Of a stretch of DNA of 64,000 nucleotides, positions 27,084 through 47,616 are shown piece after piece. Below the pieces are notes generated by a model that worked only from the letters and a program-made list of their open reading frames with translations, searched no databases and was not told the DNA's origin. Made by a program: the position numbers and the translations under genes. How positions within the stretch are numbered: position 1 is the stretch's first letter; each line of letters opens with the position of its first letter. This DNA comes from a virus, in the IMG/VR virus record IMGVR_UViG_2842363717_000002, positions 14 to 64,013 of that record. One strand, 5' to 3'.

Positions 27084-27899
27084 TTAGGCTGCCATTTGAT
27101 ATTTGGCGCCCTTGCTCATGTTATCGGAGCCCCATAATGGCTGCAGGTTGTCTAAGCACCATGCCATCTTGAATTGCTCGCATTCTGGAGTTTCGTATTG
27201 GAATGAAGCTAGCGGCCGCTCATGATCGATGTGCCACTCGCCATAATTATCCCAAGACATTCCGTCGACAAACTTGCGCTCGAGATGAGTTTTCAGTTCA
27301 TCAATCGAGTAGCCGAGGATCTCGAAAGTCCTCTTTCCTGCTTTTTCGCTTCCGCCTATAGCTCGGCGAACCGCTGTCCGCATTGTCCACTCAAGATGTC
27401 CCTGCGGAGTTGACCTCTTGATATCGTTGTATCGTTTGGCGGACGCGCGCACCTTGTCGCGATTGTCGTCCGCCCATTTCCTTGAGCGCTCAGCGCTGAC
27501 TGTCTTGGAACATGGCTTGCACACAATCTGCTTTGCGTGTTTGCGCTCAAATCCGTCTCCGCACCTGTCGCATGAGACTGTAAAACCAATAATCACTGGC
27601 TGGCGGCGCACAGAGTCATATGCGCGCTCACGTTCACGCCTGACTTCAACGCTGCAATCATCGCAGTATTTATGCGTCGCACCACCGTTGCAGGCGGCGA
27701 CAACGCCACAGCGTTCACAAGTGTAATTACGAGTTGGCTTCCGATTTTTGGAGCGATATTCAGCATTAGTCACCTCCTTGCGACGACACTTGCAGGAGTC
27801 GCAATAGAGACGCTTTCGGCTTTTGGTGGAAATCGTTTCTCCGCAATCGGCACAGCCGATCACGATTTCGCTCATCGGAGCCCTTGTTTTCTTGCTCAT
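27084..27899 (-). CDS. HNH endonuclease with multiple Zn ribbons
   Basis: Repeated CxxC; WDNYGEWHIDHERP...NLQPLW..DNMSKG. Confidence 0.85.
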   Translation of the reverse strand: MSKKTRAPMSEIVIGCADCGETISTKSRKRLYCDSCKCRRKEVTNAEYRSKNRKPTRNYTCERCGVVAACNGGATHKYCDDCSVEVRRERERAYDSVRRQPVIIGFTVSCDRCGDGFERKHAKQIVCKPCSKTVSAERSRKWADDNRDKVRASAKRYNDIKRSTPQGHLEWTMRTAVRRAIGGSEKAGKRTFEILGYSIDELKTHLERKFVDGMSWDNYGEWHIDHERPLASFQYETPECEQFKMAWCLDNLQPLWGSDNMSKGAKYQMAA

Positions 27900-31951: not shown

Positions 31952-32590
31952 CTACGCGACGTCCTGCCGGATGCCGCGAATCTTTTGTTCCATAGCCGCC
32001 CGCTTCTCAGCGATCCGGCGCGCAGCCGCGGCTGCGTTTTCAGCCTTGCGGCGCTCCGCATCTTCGCGCTCGCCGCCCTCTGCCCTCGCCGCCTCTAGCG
32101 AGCGCAGGCCTATGCTTGTTCCGCTGTAGGCCGGCGTGGTGACGATGGAAACATCGCGGAGCGACACCTTCTTCAAAGTGCGTGTCGGCGGCTCCTGCGT
32201 ATCGTCCCACTCCTGTACGTCCGCGCGGAAGGCAAACGACATCTTGCTCAGGTCGCCTCGCTTCATCTTGCCGACGATTGCCTTGACGTCCGGATCTTCT
32301 GCATCGAGCATGGTCTCCATGTAGAGGCCGCGCTCATCCTCGCGCAGCGTCAGAGTCCCCGAGCTCGTCCTGGCGAGCGGAAGGCCATCGTGATTGACAA
32401 GGAAGACAACATCGTCGCGGCCGATCGCATCGCGAAACGCTCCGCGCTCGATAACTTCTCTAAAGAAGTTGCCTATATCCGTCGTCTCTCCGAATACGGC
32501 GGCATAACCGCTTACCTTGATGCCGCTTTCGTCTGCGCGGATCTCAGCCGGAACGCCGCCGCGCGTCTCAATTTCGCTAGTGCTTGTCAT
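31952..32590 (-). CDS. HK97 prohead protease
   Basis: GYAAVF, FLVNHD..LAR, MSFAF, DVSIVTTPAY. Confidence 0.93.
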   Translation of the reverse strand: MTSTSEIETRGGVPAEIRADESGIKVSGYAAVFGETTDIGNFFREVIERGAFRDAIGRDDVVFLVNHDGLPLARTSSGTLTLREDERGLYMETMLDAEDPDVKAIVGKMKRGDLSKMSFAFRADVQEWDDTQEPPTRTLKKVSLRDVSIVTTPAYSGTSIGLRSLEAARAEGGEREDAERRKAENAAAAARRIAEKRAAMEQKIRGIRQDVA

Positions 32591-33420
32591 GCTGCTATAG
32601 CCTTGTGTTCGGCGTTGTCGTTTGCGGCTACCGGCAGATTGACAAAGCAATCTGGCCCATAGGCAGAGATCGCGGCAGCATCCCTAGCCCTGGCGGCGTC
32701 CTCTGGCGTAGGAAAGCGGCCAAGATTATTTCTTTTGCCATTTATGTTTATGTACGCGTGCCACATGCCGCGAGGCGCATCGAGGGAGACGCCACGGTAC
32801 CCAGAGGTGTTATCAGCCCTCTGTGAAGATTTTTTCTTCGCAGATGTCATCCTATCGTACTCTTCGTCCGACAGTTTGTAGCCCTTGCATGCCTCGGATA
32901 TCTTGGCTCGGGTCTCAGCCGAAACAACCTTACCCCGTTGCGCGTCGCCCATCCTTTTGCGAACCTCTGGCGTCATGGCCGCCCTGATGCCAGCAATTTT
33001 GCGCTCGATAACCTCCGGTCGACGAAGGGCCTCCTGAAGCCTTGCGACGACATCAGGAGTTGCTGCAGCCTTGGCTTTTTCGGAAATCTTTGCACGCACC
33101 TCCGGCGTCTTCCCCACCACGCCATCTCCACCGGATGTGCTATTCGTCAGGCGAGCACCACCTTCTAGATATTGAGCGATAATCTCAACCTCCTTGGTGG
33201 TGGCCTCCTCCCGAGAAAGTCCATCAAGCAGAGTGGTCATCAGGATTTCGCCGCCGCCATCAAGGACAGCCCTAATCCAGTTCGACTTATGTGTGCCAGT
33301 GAATATACGCTTGTGGTCGCGCAGCCTTCTTGATGGACGGCACGTTATCCCGACATACCTAACGACATCAGGTGACCGAGAGTCGGCCAACGCATAAACC
33401 ATCCACGTATTTTTGGTCAT
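32587..33420 (-). CDS. GIY-YIG homing endonuclease with NUMOD3/AP2 domains
   Basis: VYAL..VRYVGIT; NTSGYRGVS..WHAYI; ends AANDNAEHKAIAA. Confidence 0.8.
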   Translation of the reverse strand: MTKNTWMVYALADSRSPDVVRYVGITCRPSRRLRDHKRIFTGTHKSNWIRAVLDGGGEILMTTLLDGLSREEATTKEVEIIAQYLEGGARLTNSTSGGDGVVGKTPEVRAKISEKAKAAATPDVVARLQEALRRPEVIERKIAGIRAAMTPEVRKRMGDAQRGKVVSAETRAKISEACKGYKLSDEEYDRMTSAKKKSSQRADNTSGYRGVSLDAPRGMWHAYININGKRNNLGRFPTPEDAARARDAAAISAYGPDCFVNLPVAANDNAEHKAIAA

Positions 33421-34694
33421 GCGGCCTCGGCCTCACTGTCGTTGTTGTCATTGGCCGGCGGATTGGTCGGATTGGTTGCCGACTGCGACTGCTGTGATCC
33501 AAGCGGCACGGTTGCCCCTTGGATGTGAAGCTTGTCCGCCTCTGCGCCCTTGGCCGGCAGGTTTTCGAGCTTACGAACCTCGTCAGGAGTGCGGATGGCG
33601 TTCTGGATCGCGATGCCATAGCCTTCCATCCGGGTCTTGAAGTCGCCGCGGAGAAGTCCGTCGAGATTGTGCTCGATGTAGCGACTGCCCGCCGCCCGCC
33701 CGAAGAACTTCAGGTTGATCTCGTCCTCTAGCGCCTTGGCCCACTGGCCAATCAGGTGCTTTGTGAGGTGCAGATCCTGCTGCTCTACGTTGCTGAAGGT
33801 TGCCCTCGTCAGATCCTGCAGAAAGACCGGAGGCAGCTGGTAGGTCCGAGCGATTTCCTCGACCTGAAAGCGGCGCGCCTCGATCATCTGCCCTTTGGCC
33901 GGGTCAAGACCGACTGGAGACAGATCATATCCTGGCGGAATCGGGAAAACAGATTCCCCAGCACCCTTCGCAGCGTCGACCGAGCGCTTGATGTCAGCCT
34001 GGGCGCGCTTAAGCGCATCGCCATTCGCCGGCAGCGGCCCCTTCAAGGCTAATGGCGGAACGCCACCACCCGCAAAGAAGTTGGAGCCGTAGTCATTCAT
34101 GGCAATCGCGAGTTGGATTGCCTTGGACGCCTGCGCGATCGGGCCGTAGTGCCTCAAACCACAGCTGCGCCGCATAAACGGCACATCAATGACGTCGGCC
34201 GCATCATACGTAATGCCACCATAGCCATAGGTAACCTTTAGGCCGACGCGTTTGATGGTCGTTTTCGTCGGATCCATCGGCCAAAGCGAATCCACGCCCT
34301 GCGGCGTACGCTCGATGTAGGCCAGACCGCGGCCGTGCGTGAAAACCTGTTGCCAGAACCACTGCCAGAACGCGAAAGAGCCAATGCCATCGTTAGGAGC
34401 GATGTTTACGACCGTTTCCAGCCGGCCGGTGATGCGCGTGGCGCCGGTTTTGGTCTCACGATAGGCGTGCCGCGGTAAGGCGGCCAGCGTGCGCGACATA
34501 AAGGCGACAGCCGCCCAAACAGCCGGCACCGTCAGCGCGCTGTCGACCGTGATGGCCGGGAGATTGGCCGAATTGATACCGAAGAACGCCAGAAAATTGT
34601 CGGCGCTCACCGGGATGGTTGGATTCTCGATTGTCGTGCGAGTTTCCGGCGATTGTTCCGCGTTTCGGCGGCTAAACCAGTCTTTTAAAGCCAT
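33417..34694 (-). CDS. HK97-family portal protein
   Basis: VPAVWAAV, EEIARTYQLPP, TFSNVEQQ; ends PANDNNDSEAEAA. Confidence 0.95.
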   Translation of the reverse strand: MALKDWFSRRNAEQSPETRTTIENPTIPVSADNFLAFFGINSANLPAITVDSALTVPAVWAAVAFMSRTLAALPRHAYRETKTGATRITGRLETVVNIAPNDGIGSFAFWQWFWQQVFTHGRGLAYIERTPQGVDSLWPMDPTKTTIKRVGLKVTYGYGGITYDAADVIDVPFMRRSCGLRHYGPIAQASKAIQLAIAMNDYGSNFFAGGGVPPLALKGPLPANGDALKRAQADIKRSVDAAKGAGESVFPIPPGYDLSPVGLDPAKGQMIEARRFQVEEIARTYQLPPVFLQDLTRATFSNVEQQDLHLTKHLIGQWAKALEDEINLKFFGRAAGSRYIEHNLDGLLRGDFKTRMEGYGIAIQNAIRTPDEVRKLENLPAKGAEADKLHIQGATVPLGSQQSQSATNPTNPPANDNNDSEAEAA

Positions 34695-36628
34695 TATGCC
34701 GCCTTTGTGAGTGAAAATTCCGGGTCATCCCAAGGAGAGGCCGCCGGCTTTATCTCGACGATTCCATCAACAGCCGCGCCAACCGCCATCGCCGAAGCTA
34801 CGGCCGGGTCAATGCGCACAGTGCTCTTCTTCTTTGAAAACCACTGATTGCCCATAAGCGGGTCGGTTTCGATCGCCACGCCCATCAGCGCACCCAGCAG
34901 GACCGGCGACTTTCTAAGCCGCACACGCTCCTCCAGGATCAGCGCCTCTAGCGCCGCGACGCTCCCTGGCATCCACAAGCCGAGCGGCGGTTCAAGGCCA
35001 GCGTCTTTTGCTGCTTGAACCTTGTCGTCGTCGGGCTTTGCGCGTTTCTTGCCGCCCTGTGGGTGGGCTACGGTCTTAATGCTGACGCCGTACTCGTCGA
35101 GCTCGGTTTCGAACTTGTCAAAAGCGTAACGGTCGAAAGCCAAAACGCCAATTCCGTGCTCGGTGTTAAGGCGAGCGAATAGAGCAGCAACATGATCATA
35201 TCGTACACGTGCGCCCTCCGGAGCGTTGATGTAGCCGTTGTCCATCCATAGCCGGTAGGGCACATGGTCGATCTTCGACCGCTCATCCATGGTGTCGCGC
35301 GGCGTCCACGCTTCGATCCAAAGATCGAAGGTTGGCAAATCGACTTCCGCGCCGTCCTCTCGCATGACGCGCTTGGTGCCCGTCTCGACGACGAAAGCGG
35401 CCGCGGTCAAATCCTTGGCGCCAGACAAGTCGAGGCCTGCGGCCGTGATCTGTTTGCCCTTGTGTTCGGTGTACGGGTCGAAATCGACCATAACCTTTTC
35501 AAGGATGGGGCGCGGAATCCAGGCTGTGTCGGCTTCCGTCCAGACGCAAAAGTGCAGTCGGAGAATGCCGTTCCGCTTGGATGGGATGTCTTTCGCCTGG
35601 TTGACGACGCCGGCAAGGTAATCGTGCTTGAGCGTAACGCCGAAGAGCGGGTTGGCCTTCTGCCAGCACGTTGGATCCGTGAAAGGATCGTCATCTTTGT
35701 CGAGCGCGCAAACATATGAGAACGTCGTGTCGTCGACCACTTCACCAACGTAGGTGAAGTCATCATCCGGCGTCTGTGTGCCGGCCGCAACCTTGACGGC
35801 GTGCTGGTGTTCATCCCAGCAAATGGAGTTCCGATCGCTGCCAGAGTTCGTAATCATGAACAACAGCGGCTGTCGGCGAAACTTGAAGCCGCGCTCGAGC
35901 ATTTCGATGACCTTGCCATCGGGATGCTCGTGGATCTCGTCGCACAAGGCGATGTAAGGACGTGGACCAGAGTGCGCGCCTTCGCGCGAGATGGGCCTGA
36001 AAAACGACCGCTTCTTGAGGTACGACAGATTCCAGATCGGGTTGCCGCCTGATGGCGTCAGCTTCGACTTAAGCGCCGGCGATTGCTCATACATCGCAAC
36101 CGCGTCGCGAAACAGAACGAACGCCTGATCCTTGTTGGCGGCCGCAGCGTAGATCTCGGCCGCCGCCTCGCCGTCCGATGTCAGGCAATAGTGCCCGATA
36201 CCCGCGGCCAGCGGCGACTTGCCGTTGCCTTTGCCTTCCTCGATGTAGGCGCGTCGAAAGCGTCGCAAGATTGCGCCGTCGGATTCAACTCGCTTCCATC
36301 CGAAGATGGAGCCTATCTTGAACTGCTGAGAAATGTGCGGGTGAAACGGCCGACCTTCGAACTGGCCGCCGTTCAGGCGGAGAACAGCCGGGAAAAACCG
36401 CAGCACGCGATCGGCAGCCTCAGGATCCCAGTGGATGCCGCGCGCCGGGCCATTTAGTCGGTCGTCTCGGTGCCGGCGGCACGCGTTGCGTACGTGCGGC
36501 CCAGCAATGATGGTGCCGTTGATCACGGCCTCTGCGTATTCGTCCACCGGGCCGGTCGGATATGGCGGATTGAAATGCGCTGGAACGCTAGTCGAAGAAC
36601 TCGTCGGCCGGGTCTTTGCTTTCGCCAT
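34694..36628 (-). CDS. terL: terminase large subunit
   Basis: EEGKGNGKS, LCDEIHEH, ITNSG, WQKANP, GLDLS, IDPAVA. Confidence 0.95.
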   Translation of the reverse strand: MAKAKTRPTSSSTSVPAHFNPPYPTGPVDEYAEAVINGTIIAGPHVRNACRRHRDDRLNGPARGIHWDPEAADRVLRFFPAVLRLNGGQFEGRPFHPHISQQFKIGSIFGWKRVESDGAILRRFRRAYIEEGKGNGKSPLAAGIGHYCLTSDGEAAAEIYAAAANKDQAFVLFRDAVAMYEQSPALKSKLTPSGGNPIWNLSYLKKRSFFRPISREGAHSGPRPYIALCDEIHEHPDGKVIEMLERGFKFRRQPLLFMITNSGSDRNSICWDEHQHAVKVAAGTQTPDDDFTYVGEVVDDTTFSYVCALDKDDDPFTDPTCWQKANPLFGVTLKHDYLAGVVNQAKDIPSKRNGILRLHFCVWTEADTAWIPRPILEKVMVDFDPYTEHKGKQITAAGLDLSGAKDLTAAAFVVETGTKRVMREDGAEVDLPTFDLWIEAWTPRDTMDERSKIDHVPYRLWMDNGYINAPEGARVRYDHVAALFARLNTEHGIGVLAFDRYAFDKFETELDEYGVSIKTVAHPQGGKKRAKPDDDKVQAAKDAGLEPPLGLWMPGSVAALEALILEERVRLRKSPVLLGALMGVAIETDPLMGNQWFSKKKSTVRIDPAVASAMAVGAAVDGIVEIKPAASPWDDPEFSLTKAA

Positions 36629-36983
36629 CAGGTTTTGCCCCAGCCTTCGAAGCGTCTGCAGGCGTCGCACCCATCTGGCCAAGGCATTGCCTAAGCAAAT
36701 TCATTGCCTGCACGCCGCAGTCCTGACCGGCGATCATGCGTCCCAAAATGTTGCTTGCCGTGGCCACCAAAATCCGGTGACTGCTGTTGAGCCAAGGGAT
36801 GTCGATGCGTAGCGTTTGCCACGCCTCCCTGGCCTTGTTCGTATCGGTGTCTTTAATCCAGTCGGGCGGATCGCCGAGATCGTCGGCCACAGTGGGCTCG
36901 TTGCGTTCTTCGAATTTCTTGCGTCTGACCGATGCCTGGCCAGTTACCTCGGCCTTAGCCTTTGGCGTCCTCGGCCTTGCCAT
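36588..36983 (-). CDS. terS: terminase small subunit (P27-like)
   Basis: MARPRTPK...GRKKF-like N-terminus, P.W.., GATPADASK; directly upstream of terL. Confidence 0.8.
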   Translation of the reverse strand: MARPRTPKAKAEVTGQASVRRKKFEERNEPTVADDLGDPPDWIKDTDTNKAREAWQTLRIDIPWLNSSHRILVATASNILGRMIAGQDCGVQAMNLLRQCLGQMGATPADASKAGAKPDGESKDPADEFFD

Positions 36984-36994
36984 AGCTATAATCC

Positions 36995-37007
36995 TTGACA
37001 AATTTGT
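36995..37007 (+). promoter_or_regulatory. TTGACAAATTTGT motif (copy 3), 12 bp upstream of the terS start
   Basis: Palindrome ACAAATTTGT at 36998-37007. Confidence 0.6.
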
Positions 37008-37084
37008 TGAGACGCGGTGACGTCTCTGAATCATTCAGGCGTAGAGTCCTTGCTCCGCCACAATCCCCAAAGACCCCATCATTT

Positions 37085-37165
37085 GAATTGGAAAAATGTG
37101 CACGAATGGCCCACGCCGGTCCCTAGGCCGCGCAGCCCCAGAGATCCGACCCGCCCCTCCCAGGG
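37085..37165. other. probable cos packaging region
   Basis: Non-coding gap between HNH and terS, the usual cos location in HK97-like phages; exact cut site not determinable. Confidence 0.35.
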
Positions 37166-37255
37166 CAACCTTTCATTATATCATTCATCGCCGCACCTGT
37201 CAACAACAAAATGCAATTAAATCACTTATTTATGTCGGTTTCTTCATTCATTTTG

Positions 37256-37615
37256 TTAGATCGGCCATCCATCCGGACCGTACCGAACTACCGTCTTGCC
37301 GTTGTCCTCTAGCTGGCCGCGAGAGGCGTGGCATGGCTTGCATGTGCTGAGGAATGGACCGAACCAAAAGATTTCTTCCGATCCGCGATGCGGAACAGCG
37401 TGGTGCACCTCCGTCGCCTCGGTCACCACGTCTTGCTCCATGCACCATTGGCACAGCGGATGGGTGGCTAGCTGGTGCATGCGAAGGCGCTGCCACCGTG
37501 CGGACTTGTAGAGCCGTCGATAGAGCGCAGCCTCTTCCGAGCGCGCATCGGACTTGGTTGCAGGGGTCGGACTTGAACCGACGGCCTTCAGGTTATGAGC
37601 CTGACGAGCTACCAT
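37256..37615 (-). CDS. terminase-associated HNH endonuclease (start uncertain)
   Basis: YKSARWQRLR..HPLCQWC..EVHH..CKPCH; only in-frame ATGs are 37615 (inside tRNA-fMet) and 37480. Confidence 0.8.
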   Translation of the reverse strand: MVARQAHNLKAVGSSPTPATKSDARSEEAALYRRLYKSARWQRLRMHQLATHPLCQWCMEQDVVTEATEVHHAVPHRGSEEIFWFGPFLSTCKPCHASRGQLEDNGKTVVRYGPDGWPI

Positions 37616-37631
37616 GCTGCTCTACCCTGCT
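37555..37631 (-). tRNA. tRNA-Met(CAU), initiator-like
   Basis: AGCAGGGTAGAGCAGCATGGTAGCTCGTCAGGCTCATAACCTGAAGGCCGTCGGTTCAAGTCCGACCCCTGCAACCA; 1:72 mismatch and GAGCAGC/GCTC D arm as in fMet. Confidence 0.9.
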
Positions 37632-37635
37632 TGAT

Positions 37636-37712
37636 TGGTCTGAATGGCAGGGTTCGAACCTGCGACCCCGTGAGCCCAAGTCACGTGCGCTACCAGTCTG
37701 CGCTACATTCAG
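37636..37712 (-). tRNA. tRNA-Pro(UGG)
   Basis: CTGAATG acceptor, CGTGA-CTTGGGC-TCACG anticodon arm, GGTTCGAACCC T arm, encoded CCA. Confidence 0.9.
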
Positions 37713-37714
37713 AT

Positions 37715-38125
37715 GAAACCGAAAGCGGCCGCTCAACCAATTAAGGGAGCAGCCGCAGGGATCGCCTGTCGCCGAGGAGGAAGCGCCAGGCAATGAATGC
37801 CGCCAAGGTCCGCAATGCGGCGCGTCAAGGCAGGCAATAGATGGGGATGGCAACGTGCACCACGTTGGGGCGTTAAGCGCTGCCGTTATCCATCCCCGAC
37901 GAACACTGGTTTACAACGCCAGCCTCGCAGATGAAGTTGATGTGGGCATATCGCCGATCGGCAGCGGTTCGCGCTACCGCTGCAACACATCAATAGTTAC
38001 CCAAAGCTCAGCGGCTGCAACGCAGTGCAGCATGGCGATGGGTCCGTCGCTAAGCGCACGGAGCGGTGTGGGGCGCCGCAACTACGTTGCGCTACCCCTT
38101 CGCTCTACTCTCCCCGAGAGTGGAG
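37715..38125 (-). ncRNA. putative structured leader/ncRNA upstream of the tRNAs
   Basis: Chain of nested hairpins with no credible ORF (see findings). Confidence 0.4.
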
Positions 38126-38129
38126 AAAG

Positions 38130-39110
38130 TCAGATTTCCATCGAACAATTTGCAGTCCTTGCCAAATAAAGTGCATCAGCAAGATTATCGTTGGCTGCAA
38201 CCAGCAAACGCTTGCCGGCTTCGATGGCGTACTGACCTTTGAAGCCTCTGGCCTCTCCGATCTGCTTTAGGCTGCTGGACTTAACCGCAAGCGTGAGGAT
38301 TTTGAAATGTTCGTCAGCCATCTTGCCGACGGCGCTAAGCCATTCCTGGCGCTCCTCGCGCTGGCTAACGATATCCTGCCACATAACAGAACCGCCGCCT
38401 GCACAGGTTGTCTTCTGCATGCCGAGGAAACTGTCAGCAATCTTAGCTGAGCCGCACGGCAGACCGTCTGGGCACTTGGTGAATGTGACCTTGCTCATGT
38501 CTGTGTTGGCGTATGCCTTTGCCAGTTCAGCCTTGGCCTCGTCGTGATTGATCTTGATGCGCTCGCCTTTATGGCGTCTACCTGTGATGTAGCGCGGCTT
38601 CCTGGTTCCAAGCATCACGGCGAAATATTCGTTACTGTCCGAGACCTCTTGTGGGTTCTCGTCGCCGCCCAATGCTACATCCACCTTGTCGCGGCAGCGA
38701 AGCATGGCCCCTGTTGGCATGCGGGCCGAATATCCCTCAAGCTTGCCGTCAATTGTGAAGCGAAACGCTTTTTCCGTCTGCGTGCCGTCGCTGAACCGGA
38801 TCCGTCCGATCCTGATGACCGGACCGTTGACGATGTGAGTTTTGTGCTCAATACCGTCATACGTCGACATTTCCGTCGTTGCTTCGCTGCGCTCGATTTC
38901 GCCAGTTTTTACGTTCTTCATGATCTCGGCGACCGATGGAGTGACCAAGCGCTTGCGATCATGCTTAAGGTCAGAGACCTCTTCGGGATCGTTGTCATTT
39001 GCGGCAACAACGGTCCAATTCGTTTTTATAGGCTCCGGATCGTGATCCTTTGCCAATACGTATGAACGAAGCGTATCAAGCTGCTCCGCCAGTGATCCGT
39101 GTCTTGCCAT
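38130..39110 (-). CDS. phage protein, candidate late transcription regulator
   Basis: Last early gene before the late region; C-terminal HTH-like SSLKQIGEARG; motif promoter upstream. Confidence 0.5.
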   Translation of the reverse strand: MARHGSLAEQLDTLRSYVLAKDHDPEPIKTNWTVVAANDNDPEEVSDLKHDRKRLVTPSVAEIMKNVKTGEIERSEATTEMSTYDGIEHKTHIVNGPVIRIGRIRFSDGTQTEKAFRFTIDGKLEGYSARMPTGAMLRCRDKVDVALGGDENPQEVSDSNEYFAVMLGTRKPRYITGRRHKGERIKINHDEAKAELAKAYANTDMSKVTFTKCPDGLPCGSAKIADSFLGMQKTTCAGGGSVMWQDIVSQREERQEWLSAVGKMADEHFKILTLAVKSSSLKQIGEARGFKGQYAIEAGKRLLVAANDNLADALYLARTANCSMEI

Positions 39111-39164
39111 AGTCGTCTCCCGCATGTGGTGGTAACTACAATATGGGGCCAACCTACAAAAATA

Positions 39165-39177
39165 ACAAATTTGTCAA
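39165..39177 (-). promoter_or_regulatory. TTGACAAATTTGT motif (copy 4)
   Basis: Upstream of 38130-39110. Confidence 0.65.
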
Positions 39178-39416
39178 ACGCCGCAGGCGCGCTTTGTGGC
39201 TTGCTGTGTCGTCCGCAAATAGACGCGCAGGCCGTTGATCGTCGGCTGCGAGACATTGGCGCGCTCTGCGTCGTCCAGCGCCTGCCATGCGTATGCCTCG
39301 ATGTAACGCGACAGCGTGCAGTCCTTGCTGACAACGGCCTGCGCATTGGCAGGCGTGGTAAGGGCGGCTACGGCAAAAGTCGCGGCGATGGCGGATGCAA
39401 GAGCAATTGATTTCAT
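39174..39416 (-). CDS. small secreted protein
   Basis: Signal peptide ending ANA-Q; GAGGAGAC RBS. Confidence 0.65.
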   Translation of the reverse strand: MKSIALASAIAATFAVAALTTPANAQAVVSKDCTLSRYIEAYAWQALDDAERANVSQPTINGLRVYLRTTQQATKRACGV

Positions 39417-39468
39417 GACTGTCTCCTCTTCGTGGTGATGGTTGCGATGGTGCTAATTTAACAAACTC

Positions 39469-39482
39469 TACAAATTTGTCAA
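39469..39482 (-). promoter_or_regulatory. TTGACAAATTTGTA motif (copy 5)
   Basis: TTGACA-N16-TAAATT upstream of 39416. Confidence 0.65.
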
Positions 39483-39503
39483 GAAGCCGATAAACAAAAA
39501 AAT

Positions 39504-39540
39504 ACGTATTACGTGCAAATATCCCTTGCACGTAATACGT
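39504..39540. promoter_or_regulatory. perfect 15-bp inverted repeat operator
   Basis: ACGTATTACGTGCAA-N7-TTGCACGTAATACGT. Confidence 0.7.
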
Positions 39541-39599
39541 GGTTATGCGACAACGATCTTACCGAAGCAATCCCGCTTCGGCAGGACTAGGAGGCCACC

Positions 39600-39668
39600 A
39601 TGAGCGTTAAGCTCACCTTCCAAGTCCGGTTCGGCAAGTGGAGACTGACAATCTCCATTAGCCGATAA
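39600..39668 (+). CDS. 22-aa peptide MSVKLTFQVRFGKWRLTISISR
   Basis: AGGAGG RBS; flanked by hairpins; not in the ORF track. Confidence 0.6.
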   Translation: MSVKLTFQVRFGKWRLTISISR

Positions 39669-39734
39669 CTGGGGGCCGGAGGGGTAGCAGCCTCTCCGGT
39701 TCCCAAGATATAGCAAAACAAGGGGCCGCTTTCA

Positions 39735-40160
39735 ATGTTCGATCTCAAGGCTCAAAGGCTGAGCCTCAACCTCACGCAGCAGGAAATGGCGCTGGCCATG
39801 GGAATGCCGCTGCGAAGCTATCAGGACATCGAGTCCGGCAAGAACCCCGTTCGGCCCGTTCATGAGGCGGCGGCCAACTATGCGGCCTACGTCATTCGCA
39901 CCAAGGCCCGAGTGAAGGGAACGAAGCCGCCGCATTTCTTCATCGTCCGGTTCAAGTCGCACGAAGGCGAATGGTCACATACTTGGTCAGTCTATGCCGA
40001 AGACTTCGCCGACGCCGTCGAGAGGTTTTACAATTTGGCTCGTGTTGACAGGACGGCAGAGATCCAAATCAAAGGCGCCTTGAATGGCTTCATACCAAAC
40101 CACTCGGTCAATCACGCCGAGGCGGTGCTAGAGCACCGCGATGTGCCTTGGCCGGACTGA
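39735..40160 (+). CDS. XRE-family HTH regulator (moron)
   Basis: LNLTQQEMALAMGMPLRSYQDIESG. Confidence 0.85.
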   Translation: MFDLKAQRLSLNLTQQEMALAMGMPLRSYQDIESGKNPVRPVHEAAANYAAYVIRTKARVKGTKPPHFFIVRFKSHEGEWSHTWSVYAEDFADAVERFYNLARVDRTAEIQIKGALNGFIPNHSVNHAEAVLEHRDVPWPD

Positions 40161-40660
40161 TTGTCGTTCTCGGCCAGCCAGCCGCGCACTAGCGCCACGG
40201 CTTGCCGTGCCGCGTCTCCTTCTGTCTCCGCCCTGATCACCGCCTGCCATGCGAAGCCCAAGGCAGCCAGCAGAGCATGCCGCTCACGCTGGTCTTTGCT
40301 GACGGGCGTCTTAGCGGCCTTGAACTCGATCAAGCCAAGGCGGCCGCCGGCTATATATAGCCGAAGGTCATGCTCGCCGGCAGCAAGCCCCGTAGCCTTC
40401 GCCTTGACCTGCTCACGCATCGATCTGCGTGCCGCATTGAAGTCTCCTGCCAGGGTGAACTTGCCGGCGGCGGCGTGTTCGACGTCGGCTGCATATTCCG
40501 GCACGCCACGAAGAGCGCGCACCGCTGCAGCCTGCAAGACCCACTCCTCGATCGCCGCAGGGGCAACCGTCACCTTGCCGCTAGCGGAGGTCTTGATGAC
40601 GACGCGGGCGCCGTTGATTCTGGTTGTTTGCTGGGTGGACTTGGATTTTTCGTTTTTCAC
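40112..40660 (-). CDS. VRR-NUC domain nuclease
   Basis: G..AGEHDL...LIEFKA.K..VSKDQ. Confidence 0.75.
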   Translation of the reverse strand: MKNEKSKSTQQTTRINGARVVIKTSASGKVTVAPAAIEEWVLQAAAVRALRGVPEYAADVEHAAAGKFTLAGDFNAARRSMREQVKAKATGLAAGEHDLRLYIAGGRLGLIEFKAAKTPVSKDQRERHALLAALGFAWQAVIRAETEGDAARQAVALVRGWLAENDNQSGQGTSRCSSTASA

Positions 40661-40680
40661 GTTTTTTTACCCTCGAAGCC

Positions 40681-40780
40681 CATACACACCATACATACTG
40701 TAGAAGTATGTATGTGTATGTATGGATGGAAGCTTGTTAAATTGTATGTCTTGTATGGCTGTATGTATGGCTTGTATGGA
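40681..40780. repeat. GTATG/CATAC repeat cluster, candidate replication origin
   Basis: 9 GTATG and 3 CATAC copies in 100 bp right after the primase-helicase gene. Confidence 0.5.
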
Positions 40781-40787
40781 TATTAGA

Positions 40788-42929
40788 TTATTCTAATAAA
40801 TAGACCCACTCTCCGACTTCGGCTATTTTCCTCGTTTCCAGTAGGGTGTCCTTTGATCTCTTGAACTGCGCCTGCATCGTTCCCTGCTTGGTTCCTGATG
40901 GGCTTTTGGCATAGCAAGCCATCCGCCAGTCAGCTGTCTTCATGATCATGATATCTTCGGGATAGTATGGCGCACCTGGCGACTCGGTGCCGCTCGATGC
41001 CAGCAATTCTGAGAGGACGGCAAGCGCTGCATTTGCCTGTTTGGATATAGCTTTTTTCACCATGGCCGACCCATCTGGCTCACCATCCGCAGGCACCACT
41101 ACAGGCGCCGTAGTTGGCTCCCCGTCTTCGTCCTGCCCGATGTCAACGGATTGCATGGTGAAGGCTAACACGTCGCCCTCCTCGCCATCGTTGGTGCCAT
41201 CGCATACAAGTCGATGCTTGTTGCCATCCTTCTTCACCATGAACGAGGCGTCGACAGCGCCATCAAGGTCGATGGCGCCCTTCCCTCGCTCGCCGCTCCA
41301 TGCGCTGTGATGGATCGCCGTCACATGCGCCTTTGTTTCCGCCAGGATGTGATCGCAAGACTGCACAAACCTGGTCATGTCCTTGCTGGCGTTTTGGTCG
41401 CCGGCACCGAACACACGAGTAAGGGTATCGATGATAACCCAGACGCAAGGCATGCCTGTGATGGTTTCGGCCTCGCGGATCGCCGCTATCAGGTCGTTGG
41501 CGTCCTTCAAGTCCTTGGTGAAGTCCAGCCGTCCACCGACCACGAGAAGCGGCACATTCTGCACTTCATGATGCTTGCGGAACGCCATCATGCGCCGCTC
41601 CGTCAACTTTTTGCGCTCGGCGGCAACATAGATCACCAGCCCTTGCTTCACCTTCTTTCCATGCCAATCCATGCCCGCCGCGATGTGGCAAGCAAGATCA
41701 GTCGTCACCACGCTCTTGCCTGTGCCAGGCAGGCCTGAGATTGTCGTGAACTCACCAACACCAAGCCATCCCTTCAGGATGGTCTCCTTCGGCTTGCCTT
41801 CTTCGATTTCGTCGAACCATGTCAGTTCGAATCGCTCTTTCTTGCGTGGAGCTGCCGGCGCCCGTTCGGCGGTCGGTGGCTCGCTGATGGCGTCCATTGC
41901 CGCGGCGGCCTTGGCCAGCTTGTTCGCCACCATGCGCTCTGTGTCGATGGATGGCGTATTGTCATTATCGAATTCGCGGTCAGGTATCTGGCGAGGCGAA
42001 TTTGCCGTCTTGTCGAGTCCGCGCTTGATTTTATCCATGCACTTTCGCTCGCCGTCCGTGCCGACGAGGCCATTGGCTCGAGCAGCATCGATCAGACCGG
42101 CTTCGGCGTCTGCGCGGGATATGTGGCCGCCCGCTACCAATTCACCAATGGAGCACGCACTGGAAAACAGTTGCTGGCCGCGTTGCCCCTTGGGTGAACT
42201 GGACAGTTTGTCGAGCTCCATCTCCATGGCGCGCGAGGCGTACCTAACCGCCCCTGTGTTTGTTTCTGGCTGATAGGTGTATTCGCGCGGCTGAGTTGGG
42301 GCAGGTGCCGTGGTCTTTGGCAGCACAAGGTCTAGAAGCCATGCGGGAGCATCTGCGAATTCAGGCATATCCTGGCTGTGGTGGTCAATCCACTCGTAGC
42401 GCCGGCCGTCTGCCATGACGCTGCCGGGTCCGACGATGTATCCAGCTTCCCCTCGAGTGTCCACGCCTGGCGCTATAGCGGCTCTGTTTCTCACGCCATC
42501 AACATGCTTGAAGAAGATGTGCGTGCCGCCGTTGGCCGTCATGGCGCGGGCAGTATGTGGCAATGGGCCGTGGATCGCCTCCATTTCTGCCAGCCACGTG
42601 TGCCCGTCGCGGTCGCCGTGCCTGTCCAGGTCGAGCACCCAGCCGCCTAATTTTTCACCCGTCGGGATGCCAATGACGGCGTTAGGATGACGATCGCCAA
42701 ACCAGATATCAATGATGCGTCGTGACGTGGTCGCATCTTTCAGGCCATACGTCGTGTACGGCGCCTTCTCGGCGAATTCGATGAGCTCGCCAGTGGAGTA
42801 ATCAACGCCTTCGCTGACTTGCTCCCTGCACGGAAAAACGGCAATGCCCGCTGCAATATATGAGCGGGCGATATCAACTGGCGCCCTGTCTGTCGAGGTG
42901 GGCGGGACTTTGAAGTCTAGTTTGGCCAT
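40788..42929 (-). CDS. bifunctional primase-polymerase fused to AAA_25 helicase
   Basis: IAVFPC, VLDLD, TANGGTHIFF, DTRG..GYIV; GLPGTGKS, IIDTL, IHHS. Confidence 0.9.
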   Translation of the reverse strand: MAKLDFKVPPTSTDRAPVDIARSYIAAGIAVFPCREQVSEGVDYSTGELIEFAEKAPYTTYGLKDATTSRRIIDIWFGDRHPNAVIGIPTGEKLGGWVLDLDRHGDRDGHTWLAEMEAIHGPLPHTARAMTANGGTHIFFKHVDGVRNRAAIAPGVDTRGEAGYIVGPGSVMADGRRYEWIDHHSQDMPEFADAPAWLLDLVLPKTTAPAPTQPREYTYQPETNTGAVRYASRAMEMELDKLSSSPKGQRGQQLFSSACSIGELVAGGHISRADAEAGLIDAARANGLVGTDGERKCMDKIKRGLDKTANSPRQIPDREFDNDNTPSIDTERMVANKLAKAAAAMDAISEPPTAERAPAAPRKKERFELTWFDEIEEGKPKETILKGWLGVGEFTTISGLPGTGKSVVTTDLACHIAAGMDWHGKKVKQGLVIYVAAERKKLTERRMMAFRKHHEVQNVPLLVVGGRLDFTKDLKDANDLIAAIREAETITGMPCVWVIIDTLTRVFGAGDQNASKDMTRFVQSCDHILAETKAHVTAIHHSAWSGERGKGAIDLDGAVDASFMVKKDGNKHRLVCDGTNDGEEGDVLAFTMQSVDIGQDEDGEPTTAPVVVPADGEPDGSAMVKKAISKQANAALAVLSELLASSGTESPGAPYYPEDIMIMKTADWRMACYAKSPSGTKQGTMQAQFKRSKDTLLETRKIAEVGEWVYLLE

Positions 42930-43492
42930 TAGGCGCTCCTTATGGCTGAAGAAATATAGTCGATTGCGTCAGTTGGCAGGATGGAGAACCATTCCCCGTT
43001 CAGTCGCCTGGATGCAAAATGCTCGTGCGCTTGCCGTTCGACTGATATTGCTGCGTTGGTTTGGATGGCCGCGTCCAAAGTCAGCTTATGCGGGCTCGAC
43101 GTCGATAATTGAGCAAGACGCTTTTGCGGAGAATTCGCTATCCCGATCTTGCATAGCGGGCTGGACGAATCCAAACACGAAATGACGTAGACGTATCGCA
43201 AAGACAACCGGATCGGCTTCAAAGTGGAAATGTGAGCAATTCTATCCCATGCCCACCTCGCTATCCGCTTGCCGCTGCTGGTGTGGATTTCAGAACGATC
43301 TAAAGCGCCTAATTCGCCAAGCAGATAAGATATCGCGCACCGGCCCTCCTCGCTGTCGTTCAGTACCAGTTGAAGCGTCTGTCCTCCGTCGACTGCCCGA
43401 ATCGTCAAGGCGCCATCACTTTCGGACGCTCCAGTGATGCATGCCTGCAAGACAGGCTCGCTGGGTTTCTTTGTGGGCATTTTTCTCCTCAA
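42929..43492 (-). CDS. GIY-YIG (T5orf172-like) domain protein
   Basis: YVYVI..CKIGIANSPQKRLAQL..SSP..ERQAH..RLNGEWF. Confidence 0.8.
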   Translation of the reverse strand: MRRKMPTKKPSEPVLQACITGASESDGALTIRAVDGGQTLQLVLNDSEEGRCAISYLLGELGALDRSEIHTSSGKRIARWAWDRIAHISTLKPIRLSLRYVYVISCLDSSSPLCKIGIANSPQKRLAQLSTSSPHKLTLDAAIQTNAAISVERQAHEHFASRRLNGEWFSILPTDAIDYISSAIRSA

Positions 43493-43582
43493 TGTGGTTC
43501 GTGGCCTTGCGCTGGTGAAGCGCCCCGCCTATCTTCGGAATTGCAGATGCCGAATCGATAGCCGCCCAGGAGGCGGAGAACT

Positions 43583-43666
43583 ATGATTTTGACGTATCTG
43601 CAAACTGCCAACGAGATCGCTGGCATCCTCTCCTTCTTCATCCTCATCTACACGCTGGTGCGCTAG
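43583..43666 (+). CDS. 27-aa hydrophobic peptide, type I toxin-like
   Basis: MILTYLQTANEIAGILSFFILIYTLVR; AGGAGG RBS inside a hairpin; not in the ORF track. Confidence 0.55.
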   Translation: MILTYLQTANEIAGILSFFILIYTLVR

Positions 43667-44031
43667 AACGGCGCATCCTTTAGCGCCTCACGCAACCGCG
43701 CCGCCGCGCCAGACCACGCCGCCTTCACGAGCATGCGTCTGTCGAGCTCGTCATAATCATCAAGCGCAACTCCCCATAGTCCGCGCTCCTCAATCCACTC
43801 GCCGACCGCCTCAACGCCACCATCCAGGGCGGCAAGCTCGTAGTCGTCGAGCCGGCGGATTTTCTTGTAGTCGTCGATCGCCACGATGCACCTCCGGCAA
43901 AGATATTGGGTGTCTCCCTTGGTGTGGTTGATGCCCAGCGCTACGGCGCGCATGCCGCAGCAAAAACACGTGGTGGGATCCCCGGCGGCGTCAACCGTCG
44001 GGGTGAAGGCGGTTTTGGGTATGGTGCTCAT
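43663..44031 (-). CDS. phage hypothetical protein
   Basis: CFCC..YLCRRC; coupled ORF. Confidence 0.7.
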   Translation of the reverse strand: MSTIPKTAFTPTVDAAGDPTTCFCCGMRAVALGINHTKGDTQYLCRRCIVAIDDYKKIRRLDDYELAALDGGVEAVGEWIEERGLWGVALDDYDELDRRMLVKAAWSGAAARLREALKDAPF

Positions 44032-45083
44032 GCCGCTACCGTTGCCGGCACGTTGTCGTTTGCCGCCGCGAACAGGTCTGCCACCGGCTGATCTTTCGTG
44101 CCGAGTGCAGCAATGTTCTTCACAGCCTGGCGGAAATAGGACGGCTTAAGCTCGAAGCCGATGCCCTTGCGGCCCATCTCGACAGCCGAATAGACCTCAC
44201 TGCCGATGCCCAAGAATGGCGTCAGCACTGTTTCGCCCGGCAGGCTCCACAGATCGATGCATCGCTCGATGACGTCGAGTTGCAGCGGCGAGATGTGTTG
44301 TTCATCTTGCTCGTCTCGGCCGCCGCGGTATTGCAGCGTGCGCGTTTGGCGAATGTCGCTCCACACCGGCGAGGCGTAGCGCTGCCAGACGAACACGGAT
44401 CTCCATTGCTCAAAGCTCCACGGCGTGCGGCCATCGGCAATCGTCTCCGCCGCGTGCCGATCGTACGCCTCGCGGCTGACGTCGAGACCGCCATCCTCTC
44501 CGGCCTGCGAGCCGACGAATGCGTCAAACATGCCGTCGACAGGCTCCATATTATCGCCCGGCTTGCGGAACGAAACGATATAATCGGCGAGCCCCTGCCC
44601 ACTGATGCAGCTATCTTTCGTGACCTGCTTATGCAGCAGGCGGATCGATTTAGTGCGCTGTTGCGCGACGACCGGATCTTTCCAGATGCAAACTTCCGAA
44701 TGGAAGATCCACCCGGCATCTTCATATGCGCGGATGATCTCGCCGCGGAAGTCACGCATGCCGATGAAGCCGTTGCGTCTCTTGCTGGTCGGCAGTTGCA
44801 TGCAATGCACGCTGTGAATTCGGCCGGGCTTGGTGACGCGCAGCAGTTCCTGGATCAGGAAAGCATAATGCTCCCAGAACGCGCCGCCCTCATTGTTGCT
44901 GATGTCGCGATCAAAGCTCGAGAACTTATAGAGACCTTCGAATGGCGGCGAGTGAATGCCGAAGTGGACGCTATCGCCCGGCACGGCGCGGATCAGCTCG
45001 CACGAGTCGCCCTCGTAGATAGCGTAGTTGTCGGTGATTACCTGGTTTACGGCATTGACGCCGGCGGTCACGGAATTGGTCAT
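44028..45083 (-). CDS. DNA methyltransferase (N4-C/N6-A, beta class)
   Basis: HSPPF, H..PLQLDVIERCI, VLTPFLGIGS; ends AANDNVPATVAA. Confidence 0.88.
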   Translation of the reverse strand: MTNSVTAGVNAVNQVITDNYAIYEGDSCELIRAVPGDSVHFGIHSPPFEGLYKFSSFDRDISNNEGGAFWEHYAFLIQELLRVTKPGRIHSVHCMQLPTSKRRNGFIGMRDFRGEIIRAYEDAGWIFHSEVCIWKDPVVAQQRTKSIRLLHKQVTKDSCISGQGLADYIVSFRKPGDNMEPVDGMFDAFVGSQAGEDGGLDVSREAYDRHAAETIADGRTPWSFEQWRSVFVWQRYASPVWSDIRQTRTLQYRGGRDEQDEQHISPLQLDVIERCIDLWSLPGETVLTPFLGIGSEVYSAVEMGRKGIGFELKPSYFRQAVKNIAALGTKDQPVADLFAAANDNVPATVAA

Positions 45084-46492
45084 TATGCGGCACCTCCTAG
45101 CCATGTCGGGATCTGCATCGGGATTTTCGGATCGTAGTTAGCCTTATCGCGCGCCTGCGCATTGATGGCTGCTTTGGTGATGTTGGCTGTGTGCAAGACC
45201 ATGGCCGCGGCCATGCGGTCGGCGTCAGCCTCCTTGCGTTTGAGGTTCGCTACAACGGCGCCCTCGGTCTCGGCGGCGATGAAATGCGCCGTGACTTCGT
45301 TCTGCTGACCGAACCGCCAGAAGCGGCGCACCGCCTGATAGACCTGCTCGAAGCTGTCATTGAGGCCGACAAATCCGGTATCGGCGCAATGCTGCCAGTT
45401 CATGCCAAAACCAGCGATCGACGGCTTTGTGACGAGAACGCGGATTCGACCTTCGCTGAAGTCGATCAACTTCCGCTCTTTGACGTCTTCCTTGTCGGAT
45501 CCTCGCACTTCGACAGCGCCTGGAATGGCGGCTGTCAGTGCTTCGCTCTCGGCGTTGAGATTGCACCACCAGACGAACGGCCGATCGGTAGGCGTTAGGC
45601 TTGCCGCGTGCGCGACACGGTCGCCGACGCTATCTCGGCGCGCCTTGATGCGCTCCTGCAAGGTCGACGCGCGACCGCCGACCAGATCGACGTTGTCAGC
45701 AGACATTGTCACCGTATGGTGAACTTGGTGGAGTGCCGGCAATTGGTAGGGGCCATCGCCGTATCCTAGGTCTGATGGCTTCCGGAGCATGACAGCCCAC
45801 GACGCCATCCATCGCCAGAAGTCGTTTTCGGCATGGCCCTTCAGTCGCCACTTCTGCGTCTCGCCGCCATCGTGCGTGAAGAAGGTGGCGAGCATATCCG
45901 AATAGGACATGATGCCGAGGAATTCAGCGTGGTTGCCGAGTTCCATGAAGTCGTTCGGCGCAGGCGTTGCGGTAGCTGCCAGTCGGAATGGAATGCCGTG
46001 GCAAGCATCCACCAGTTCATTGCGGTAGTGGCCCGACTCGGACTTGAGAATGCTGCTCTCGTCGAGGATCACGCCGGCAAACCGATCGAGATTGAAATGC
46101 TCGATCTTCTGATAGTTGGTGATGTTGATGCCCGGGCCGCATTCGTCTTGGGATTTGACGTGGCGCGCCGGAATTCCGAACTTCTCAGCCTCCCGAACCA
46201 TCTGCGCAGCGACGGCCAACGGCGCAAAATGCAGAATATCGCCCTGCGTTGCGTCGCCGACGGCCTGACCCCATGACAATTCCATGAGGCTCTTGCCGAG
46301 ACCAGTCCCGGCGAACAGCGCAGCCCGGCCGCGCTTGAGCGCCCATGTGACGATGTCGCGCTGGAATGGGAACAGGACAGCAGGCAGTTCTGGAATCTCG
46401 GTCAGGCCAGTCGGCGGATCCAAGATCGCCTTTCTGGCTAGAAACTCAGCATAGGCGTCAGCCTGCGCCGATGGCGCAATGTTCATATTCAT
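45083..46492 (-). CDS. SNF2-like helicase
   Basis: LFPFQ, GTGLGKS, LDES, TATP, GMNWQ, QAVRR. Confidence 0.85.
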   Translation of the reverse strand: MNMNIAPSAQADAYAEFLARKAILDPPTGLTEIPELPAVLFPFQRDIVTWALKRGRAALFAGTGLGKSLMELSWGQAVGDATQGDILHFAPLAVAAQMVREAEKFGIPARHVKSQDECGPGINITNYQKIEHFNLDRFAGVILDESSILKSESGHYRNELVDACHGIPFRLAATATPAPNDFMELGNHAEFLGIMSYSDMLATFFTHDGGETQKWRLKGHAENDFWRWMASWAVMLRKPSDLGYGDGPYQLPALHQVHHTVTMSADNVDLVGGRASTLQERIKARRDSVGDRVAHAASLTPTDRPFVWWCNLNAESEALTAAIPGAVEVRGSDKEDVKERKLIDFSEGRIRVLVTKPSIAGFGMNWQHCADTGFVGLNDSFEQVYQAVRRFWRFGQQNEVTAHFIAAETEGAVVANLKRKEADADRMAAAMVLHTANITKAAINAQARDKANYDPKIPMQIPTWLGGAA

Positions 46493-46887: not shown

Positions 46888-47616
46888 TCAAGCCGCAACC
46901 TTCCGCTCGACAACGGCGAACCCCGGCACATTCCGAACTCCCGCGCGCACGACTTCCTCGGCGTTCTTCTGCGCCACGGCCAGCACTTCCGCCTTCGCGC
47001 GTGCCCATAGCCAATCCATGGCCGCCTCCTCATCCACCAGCGTCACGTCCCACACCGTGCGCAGCCCGGTGCCTACGGTCGCCGCCTTGTCGGCACGCTT
47101 CGCAGTCTTTTCCAGCTTCTTAGCGTCGGCCAGCAGTTCCTCCGCCTCTTCCCGCGCCGCGAGGTTGCCCGAGGACGCGCGAATGGCCTCATCTGCGGCA
47201 AGCTTAGCGGCTGCTGCTGCTGCGGCCACACGGGCAGCTTCCTCCGCCGCTGCGATGGCCTTGGCGGTGCGCCACGGCGTCAGCAGGGTGTCGAGCGTCG
47301 ACTTGGCCATGTCCACCTTGCCTTTTTTAGGGGCAATATAGACGTTGTAACGGTCCTGGATCTCCTTGACCTTAACGTCGAGCGGCTTCTTCTCCTCGAC
47401 GCGCAGCGCATCGGCGCGTTTGCCCGCCTCGTGGATTCCGTCTCTCAGTCGCTCGATCTGGTCGTGCATTTCCTGGCTGGTGATCGGCTCACCGTCGGCC
47501 CAATTCTTGGCTTCATCGAAGAGGTCTTCGATTTCCTGCTTGATGGCGTCGAATGGTGACTGGTTGTGGGTCTTGGGCGGGGTGGCGATTGCGGTGGGGT
47601 CGAAGGTGTTAGTCAT
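46888..47616 (-). CDS. phage coiled-coil protein
   Basis: Ala-rich helical ORF, coupled. Confidence 0.7.
   Translation of the reverse strand: MTNTFDPTAIATPPKTHNQSPFDAIKQEIEDLFDEAKNWADGEPITSQEMHDQIERLRDGIHEAGKRADALRVEEKKPLDVKVKEIQDRYNVYIAPKKGKVDMAKSTLDTLLTPWRTAKAIAAAEEAARVAAAAAAAKLAADEAIRASSGNLAAREEAEELLADAKKLEKTAKRADKAATVGTGLRTVWDVTLVDEEAAMDWLWARAKAEVLAVAQKNAEEVVRAGVRNVPGFAVVERKVAA

Follow-up and report, generated by a model that had tools for sequence, protein, structure and literature searches.

The ssrA tag, which transfer-messenger RNA (tmRNA) adds to stalled chains, is a short peptide with two readers. In Escherichia coli, the adaptor SspB binds its first seven residues, AANDENY, while ClpX contacts the tag simultaneously (PMC9963277); SspB enhances the breakdown by ClpXP of proteins that carry the ssrA tag, although it is dispensable (reviewed in PMC8138137). 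Mycobacteriophage BPs carries an ssrA-like C-terminal tag on its virally encoded repressor, gp33(136), in a system of integration-dependent immunity (PMC4557955), and engineered 'DAS'-type SspB-dependent tags, which combine a weakened ClpX end with an intact SspB site, have been used in mycobacteria (PMC3064785). Here we describe a 64,000-nucleotide stretch of viral DNA (the window; positions 14 to 64,013 of IMG/VR record IMGVR_UViG_2842363717_000002) in which four proteins end in what look like copies of both parts of the host tag, an Ala-Asn-Asp-Asn (ANDN) head and an Ala-Ala (AA) end. C-terminal ClpX signals are also known on the transposase and the repressor of phage Mu; those do not copy the tmRNA tag and lack an SspB-binding head.

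The window is nearly all of a 64,231-base provirus on a 481-kb contig of assembly GCA_014200035.1. It is a 16-3/RHph-like Rhizobium provirus: its head genes share about 83% DNA identity with Rhizobium phages RHph_TM3_3_14B and RHph_Y3_1 and Sinorhizobium phage NV1.1.1, and the named genome with the closest portal, at 95% identity, is Rhizobium esperanzae. The minus strand carries nearly all of its genes, which we identified from Pfam, PHROGs and public gene calls, as gene calling by GC content at third codon positions was indecisive in this genome. Four of the encoded proteins, a homing endonuclease, the portal, a DNA methylase and an exonuclease, end in [A/P]ANDN (AANDN in three, PANDN in one) followed by 7, 8, 8 or 9 residues, the last two of which are AA in three tails and VA in one. 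These are the four tails that the initial annotation of the window had picked out, and all of them lie in frame at the ends of long minus-strand open reading frames (ORFs):

6631-7884, minus strand: DNA repair exonuclease-like gene, 417 residues (phrog_704 'DNA repair exonuclease', E = 2.8e-96)
6634-6675, minus strand: exonuclease tail, AANDNAPAEQRRVA, ANDN plus nine residues with a VA end; stop codon at 6631-6633
32587-33420, minus strand: GIY-YIG/NUMOD3/AP2 homing endonuclease gene, 277 residues (Pfam and public gene call)
32590-32628, minus strand: homing-endonuclease tail, AANDNAEHKAIAA, ANDN plus eight residues; stop codon at 32587-32589, overlapping the ATG of the prohead protease gene
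33417-34694, minus strand: portal gene, 425 residues (Phage_portal PF04860, E = 1.4e-79, in agreement with the public gene call for the host contig)
33420-33458, minus strand: portal tail, PANDNNDSEAEAA, ANDN plus eight residues; stop codon at 33417-33419
44028-45104, minus strand: N6_N4 DNA methylase gene, 358 residues (PF01555, E = 2.7e-15)
44031-44066, minus strand: DNA methylase tail, AANDNVPATVAA, ANDN plus seven residues; stop codon at 44028-44030, overlapping the ATG of the next gene

The domain matches bear out the earlier labels of portal and methyltransferase and refine that of endonuclease to a homing enzyme. The fourth label, phosphoesterase, found no phosphoesterase match in Pfam, where 6631-7884 gave weak helix-turn-helix (HTH) matches only, and is acceptable by virtue of the phrog_704 exonuclease match. 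The range originally assigned to the feature, 32590-44063, leaves the exonuclease tail outside.

Each tail lies beyond the last domain match of its protein, which ends at residue 378 of 425 in the portal, 329 of 358 in the methylase, 255 of 277 in the homing endonuclease (AP2) and 400 of 417 in the exonuclease (phrog_704). An AlphaFold2 model of the methylase, moderate as a whole (mean predicted local distance difference test score (pLDDT) of 60.7), gives residues 336-358 a pLDDT below 50. These are not tags added by tmRNA, for each gene encodes its tail in frame, with a normal stop codon after it, and a search of the provirus found no tmRNA gene, alpha-type included; nor did it yield an SspB homologue (PF04386) in a search up to E = 1. 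The homing endonuclease gene is inserted between the portal and S78 prohead protease genes, a position at which RHph_TM3_3_14B has no homing endonuclease. The idea that its tail is a duplicate of the portal tail arising from the insertion was rejected, since most codons differ between the two.

The presumed model for these tails is present in related hosts. We located the tmRNA genes of five prophage-bearing host genomes with Rfam and read their tags with ARAGORN, comparing related hosts and taking R. esperanzae as a proxy for the window's own host. The tag is ANDNYAEARLAA in R. esperanzae and Mesorhizobium, ANDNNAKEYALAA in Agrobacterium, ANDNKAQGYALAA in Brucella and ANDNFAPVAQAA in Bradyrhizobium. 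This alignment, which the initial annotation had proposed as a check, shows that the invariant part of the five tags is (A)ANDN, followed by 8-9 residues with AA at the end. All five genomes encode SspB (PF04386, above the family cut-off), and the one from Rhizobium is homologous to proteins of known structure from Agrobacterium (2NYS) and Caulobacter (SspB-alpha; 2QAS and 2QAZ), at E = 1e-36 or better. ClpX and ClpP are assumed in these hosts from general knowledge. The sspB and tmRNA genes are close neighbors, no more than a few hundred bases apart, in Rhizobium, Agrobacterium and Bradyrhizobium (L083/L088, G001 contig 2, 379585-380549; likewise in G002 and G005).

Set against the native alphaproteobacterial tag, the phage tails share the invariant head, the C-terminal Ala-Ala with its free carboxylate, a similar length from the first alanine (12-14 residues in the tails and 13-14 in the hosts) and a setting in which related hosts encode SspB. 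They differ in being gene-written and present on every molecule rather than added to stalled chains, in middles unrelated to the host tag, in the residue before Ala-Ala (often E, D, Q or R rather than L or V) and in the occurrence of the head by itself, at N-termini or within linkers. BPs carries its tag on a regulator, from which integration removes it, whereas the tags of the window are not removed in that way; the window's lineage has also copied the adaptor-binding head and has such tails on some 4 proteins in each phage and about 19 families overall, a structural protein included. Portal-type tails (ANDN...EAA, DAA or QAA) have the layout of the engineered SspB-dependent tags, an intact head with a putatively weak end, but are natural rather than designed. 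A full-text literature search found no paper on ANDN phage tails or on SspB-type ssrA-like tags on portals. Pseudomonas phage pf16, which the search returned and which encodes an SspB homologue, is a different matter. Phage proteins with ssrA-like tags are already known, whereas the copied adaptor head, its native spacing, the scale and the presence on a portal appear to be unpublished.

One line of evidence that these tails may be read as tags comes from the distance between their two parts. We fetched portal relatives from 79 loci in bacterial genomes. Pooling of all loci, with the proteins clustered after removal of the tails, gave 106 unique tails (ANDN at most 30 residues from the end), which belong to 23 families. 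The stretch that follows ANDN was 7 residues long in 20 tails, 8 in 29, 9 in 23, 10 in 6, 12 in 4, 13 in 4 and 14 in 5; none of the 106 had a spacing of 1-6. With a spacing of 7-14, 79 of 91 unique tails end in AA, or 17 of 19 when counted by family (binomial P about 1e-12 against a 15% background), and at 15 or more only 1 of 14 does. A minimum of 7 residues combined with loss of AA beyond 14 points to a reader sensitive to how far the head lies from the free end, a pattern that a by-product of gene overlap does not explain.

Gene overlap had been raised from the start as a caveat, on the grounds that AA endings can arise where a ribosome-binding site (RBS) and start codon overlap the end of a gene. 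All four window tails do overlap the RBS and start of the next gene (GCATGA in three, GCTTGA in one), and their last five or six codons also carry that gene's RBS and spacer. The final codons of the portal double as a GAGG RBS and its stop overlaps an ATG, and the exonuclease tail encodes AGGAGG with its stop overlapping a TTG. Yet the AA end is found in 40 of 45 ORFs with ANDN tails (89%) and in 99 of 917 other ORFs (11%; Fisher P = 8e-31), and among related-locus ORFs of at least 120 residues it occurs in 11% with an overlapping start and 11% without. Of the AA-ending ANDN tails, 17 have no overlapping start and stop at TAA, TAG or TGA, and across the related tails both final positions use all four alanine codons while every ANDN wobble position varies. 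The overlap is therefore real but is not the source of the AA pattern; judged from these codon patterns, selection acts on the peptide itself. As a separate observation, AA is the commonest C-terminal dipeptide in these loci, at 11% in ANDN-positive loci and 6% in ANDN-negative relatives.

Comparison with related phages and proviruses shows where the tails occur. Among portals, ANDN is confined to the closer relatives, from Rhizobium, Agrobacterium, Shinella, Mesorhizobium, Brucella/Ochrobactrum, Bradyrhizobium and others. We counted 29 unique portals with [P/A]ANDN and 8-13 variable residues (20 in one), all 29 of which end in AA; in more distant portals, the tails are acidic and their ends vary, and some have the near-variants DNDN or GNDN. 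Close homologues of the methylase end DLF-(A)AANDN-x5-7-AA, and a second methylase subfamily ends ANDN-x6-11-NAA with GCAGCC-TGA and no overlapping start. Distant methylase homologues have no ANDN yet mostly still end GAA, VAA or GVA, which suggests that in methylases the head may have been added onto an older Ala-Ala end. A scan of viral contigs for the homing endonuclease returned distant partial matches only, so its homologues were taken from a protein database: three have ANDN plus 8-9 residues ending in AA right after the AP2 domain, two of them at 61% and 35% identity, and among the others many have short AA tails and some have no tail. Exonuclease homologues in two related prophages end in AA (ANDNAPAEQMRAA and AANDNEPARAAA). 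To judge by the two methylase subfamilies and the scattered homing-endonuclease homologues, the tail has arisen or been kept repeatedly. Within 37.7 kb, the cultured phage RHph_TM3_3_14B carries ANDN 13 times; PANDNKSDDEAQAA is the end of its portal, and AANDNVASVQEAA and AANDNSPQLSLFGDAA are those of its two methylases.

Some tails adjoin short motifs that resemble sliding-clamp-binding sequences. ADLF stands directly before the methylase ANDN of the window (44067-44080, minus strand), and QLSLF lies within the tail of an RHph_TM3_3_14B methyltransferase (L194, about 22617-22664). A 352-residue ORF at 53459-54517 (minus strand) matches in position the annotated DNA polymerase III beta clamp of RHph_TM3_3_14B and is a candidate clamp gene by position.

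In the host genomes searched, the pattern is, tmRNA genes apart, also restricted to phage-like DNA. Searching the five host genomes (33.6 Mb) for ANDN-x5-11-AA-stop at the DNA level gave 19 matches, against 1 for a reversed control; 5 were tmRNA genes, 1 was out of frame and 13 lay in DNA of prophages or of phage-like character. In-frame matches numbered 1-4 in each of five proviruses of about 60 kb. One of the 13, an isolated match in Mesorhizobium (L092), belongs to no Pfam or PHROG family and has no relative among the loci studied, whereas the rest fall in prophages of the window's type; we classed it as phage-like on account of its neighbouring genes, which encode DUF3987, phage-lysozyme and DUF2793 proteins. 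Across 121 sampled alphaproteobacterial genomes, a tally that takes in one unpublished genome (G050), 113 had 0 or 1 match, with about 9 control matches in total, and the single matches look like tmRNA tags. The simple rule ANDN-x5-12-AA-stop thus marked, in the five host genomes, only the tmRNA gene and phage-like DNA. In one further alphaproteobacterium (G016), 21 near-identical UPF0236 (ISLre2-type transposase) genes (L196:1592-3106, plus strand) end PANDNISPRAAAMAIAA (ANDN...IAA), which suggests that an insertion sequence may bear a tmRNA-tag look-alike as well. Such a tail fits the theme set by the Mu proteins, that of a mobile element's protein with a C-terminal ClpX signal.

The reading that we favor, and hold with moderate confidence, is that the tails are genome-encoded, two-part mimics of the ssrA tag, whose head would be read by SspB and whose Ala-Ala end would be read by ClpX. 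We infer the binding to SspB, the degradation by ClpXP and the benefit of the tails from sequence comparison. On this model, the (A/P)-A-N-D-N head would be the SspB docking part of the tag, the free C-terminal Ala-Ala would be engaged by the ClpX pore, and the 5-7 variable residues in between would hold the native distance so that both readers could bind together. SspB would then tether the tagged phage protein to ClpXP, leading to its unfolding and degradation. Unless something protected them, the homing endonuclease, the methylase, the exonuclease and unassembled portal subunits would have short lifetimes. Most of the tailed proteins are enzymes whose persistence or leakage in a lysogen could be harmful. 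The C-terminus of a portal is expected, from portal structures in general, to point toward the capsid interior, so assembly could protect it: burial in the procapsid might shield the end, with free subunits being cleared. Putatively weak ends such as EAA, DAA and RVA would make turnover strongly dependent on the adaptor, as in engineered SspB-dependent tags. The phage would thus probably leave the lifetime of its tailed proteins to the host SspB-ClpXP system. The premise from which this idea started, that both the SspB and the ClpX determinants are needed for efficient degradation, was worded too strongly, as SspB enhances the reaction and is not indispensable (PMC8138137).

The head itself is far more widespread in the window than the full tail. 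All 20 occurrences of ANDN fall in the likely coding frame of the strand that is coding; no other minus-strand tetrapeptide is as enriched, with 19 copies observed and 0.14 expected from composition. Wobble bases differ among the copies, so the conserved object is the peptide and not the DNA. The copies outside the tails include the following:

48616-48651, minus strand: C-terminal linker of a helicase, with ANDN twice as head only; the protein finishes with an acidic tip, DDDIPF, like that of single-stranded DNA-binding protein
51167-51178, minus strand: head-only ANDN at residues 8-11 of a sigma-70-type factor that ends ...REAA
62919-62930, plus strand: small HTH_17 (excisionase/AlpA-like) protein with head-only ANDN at its N-terminus

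The helicase (ResIII/Helicase_C; 48568-50367, minus strand) has a counterpart in RHph_TM3_3_14B that ends AANDN...WDDEVPF, and tails of this helicase type have a spacing of 15 or more and never AA at the end. An HNH endonuclease ORF (51716-52261, minus strand) stops with TAA right after ...MIAANDN; in its RHph_TM3_3_14B counterpart, the ANDN is internal and 162 further residues follow, so the gene in the window may have been cut short or split there. A 'split' layout, with ANDN N-terminal or mid-chain and a C-terminal AA, is seen in three proteins, all encoded on the minus strand: the sigma factor (50672-51199, ...REAA), a small HTH protein (58700-59050, ...QVAA) and a deoxynucleoside monophosphate phosphatase-like protein (3943-4827, ...RRAA, one ANDN near its N-terminus). 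AA ends without a nearby ANDN are present on the large terminase (...TKAA, 34694-36682), a helicase (...GGAA, 45083-46492) and others ending ...KVAA (46888-47616), ...GAAA (57265-58416), ...RRAA (3943-4827) and ...QMAA (27084-27899), again all on the minus strand. Elsewhere, near the terminase region, an 80-base stretch at about 37550-37629 has 86% identity to tRNA-Met genes of Komagataeibacter phages, a phage-borne tRNA.

Several of these observations weigh against the mimicry reading. The initial annotation is partly supported: the two-part likeness to the host tag holds, but it described only part of the ANDN picture, as 15 of the 20 window copies are not tag-like tails and are located at N-termini, within linkers or at a greater distance from the C-terminus. 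The head clearly has an existence separate from the full tag. Tail middles are unlike those of the host tags, in which ANDN is directly followed by an aromatic residue or N/K and then by A-x-x-L. The codons of the window tails also serve the next gene's RBS, spacer and start, so that their sequence is partly constrained for other reasons, and the portal end GCC-GCA-TGA is strongly conserved at the DNA level. Portal tails end EAA, DAA or QAA rather than LAA or VAA, and such ends may be weak ClpX signals. Finally, nearly all portal relatives at 60% identity or less have no ANDN, and because many of these are alphaproteobacterial too, the motif is a habit of the lineage and not a necessity.

An alternative that we consider unlikely, though worth taking seriously, retains the contact with SspB, ClpX or both and gives it a purpose other than destruction of the bearer. 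The tailed proteins could compete for adaptor and protease and keep them busy, so that other phage proteins are spared or quality control in the host is blunted, or the tails could recruit ClpX as an unfoldase that remodels complexes, as with the Mu transpososome; ClpX is known to remodel MuA, which counts in favor of the second version. The same evidence of mimicry underlies this explanation, which would also accommodate the many heads with no ClpX-type end after them (at N-termini, in linkers and before the DDDIPF tip), and the acidic, weak-looking portal ends EAA and DAA would suit binding without efficient engagement. However, a decoy would be expected to be abundant and to contain repeats, whereas here single copies sit on about 20 different enzymes, and the low-copy portal would make a poor competitor. 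The coupling of head and Ala-Ala at the native distance is, moreover, what a productive hand-off to the ClpX pore would need.

We give little credence to a second alternative, in which ANDN docks some other partner, such as a phage-encoded hub, Ala-Ala derives from translational coupling, and the likeness to the tag is a coincidence. Start-codon overlap is certainly common, being found in 4 of 4 window tails and 68 of 91 related tails, and AA is the commonest C-terminal dipeptide even in ANDN-free ORFs (about 11%). The motif is lineage specific among phages of the same hosts, as might be expected for a phage-encoded partner, and the phage sliding clamp, a candidate by position, could be that partner, given that clamp-binding-like DLF or QLSLF adjoins some tails. 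Coupling would nevertheless have to explain why AA ends 11% of the other ORFs with overlapping starts and 89% of ANDN tails, why 17 AA tails have no overlap at all and why the spacing limits call for a distance-measuring reader. That the head is the sole invariant part of five host tags argues against coincidence, and the window encodes no SspB-like protein in the PF04386 search. Clamp-binding motifs fill a hydrophobic pocket, into which the polar ANDN does not fit. A role at the DNA or RNA level, in which the copies would link modules for recombination at their borders, bind a protein or signal to the translation machinery and the peptide would be incidental, is very improbable: although ANDN copies lie near gene borders and one gene start (5935) and one gene end (51730) share the MIAANDN context, third codon positions all vary while the amino acids stay constant, 20 of 20 copies are in coding frame and strand, every copy but one in the 79 related loci is on the coding strand, and no motif acting as DNA can explain why a C-terminal Ala-Ala is coupled to it at a fixed spacing.

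The mimicry reading can be extended to the whole lineage, in which case the host tag would serve as a proteome-wide control line, with full tags and head-only ANDN together placing about 15 proteins per phage under a stress-sensing SspB-ClpXP regime. We regard this extension as doubtful. If it were true, enzymes, a sigma factor, an excisionase-like protein and the portal would share SspB-ClpXP control, and phage proteins would compete with cellular ssrA-tagged chains for one adaptor. Because the adaptor would be shared, the lifetime of phage proteins would rise when ribosome stalling loads the system, and the phage would have a sensor of host translational stress feeding into its lysis-lysogeny and assembly decisions.

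The core proposal is directly testable because the cultured Rhizobium etli phage RHph_TM3_3_14B bears the same tails. If it is true, a structural phage protein would be a probable substrate of the ssrA pathway, and the tails would be a natural counterpart of the SspB-dependent tags engineered in synthetic biology. Temperate phages that form a widespread group in Rhizobium, Agrobacterium, Mesorhizobium and Brucella-type bacteria would have written the host quality-control tag, together with its adaptor site, into their own genes, setting the lifetime of nucleases, methylases and even the portal.

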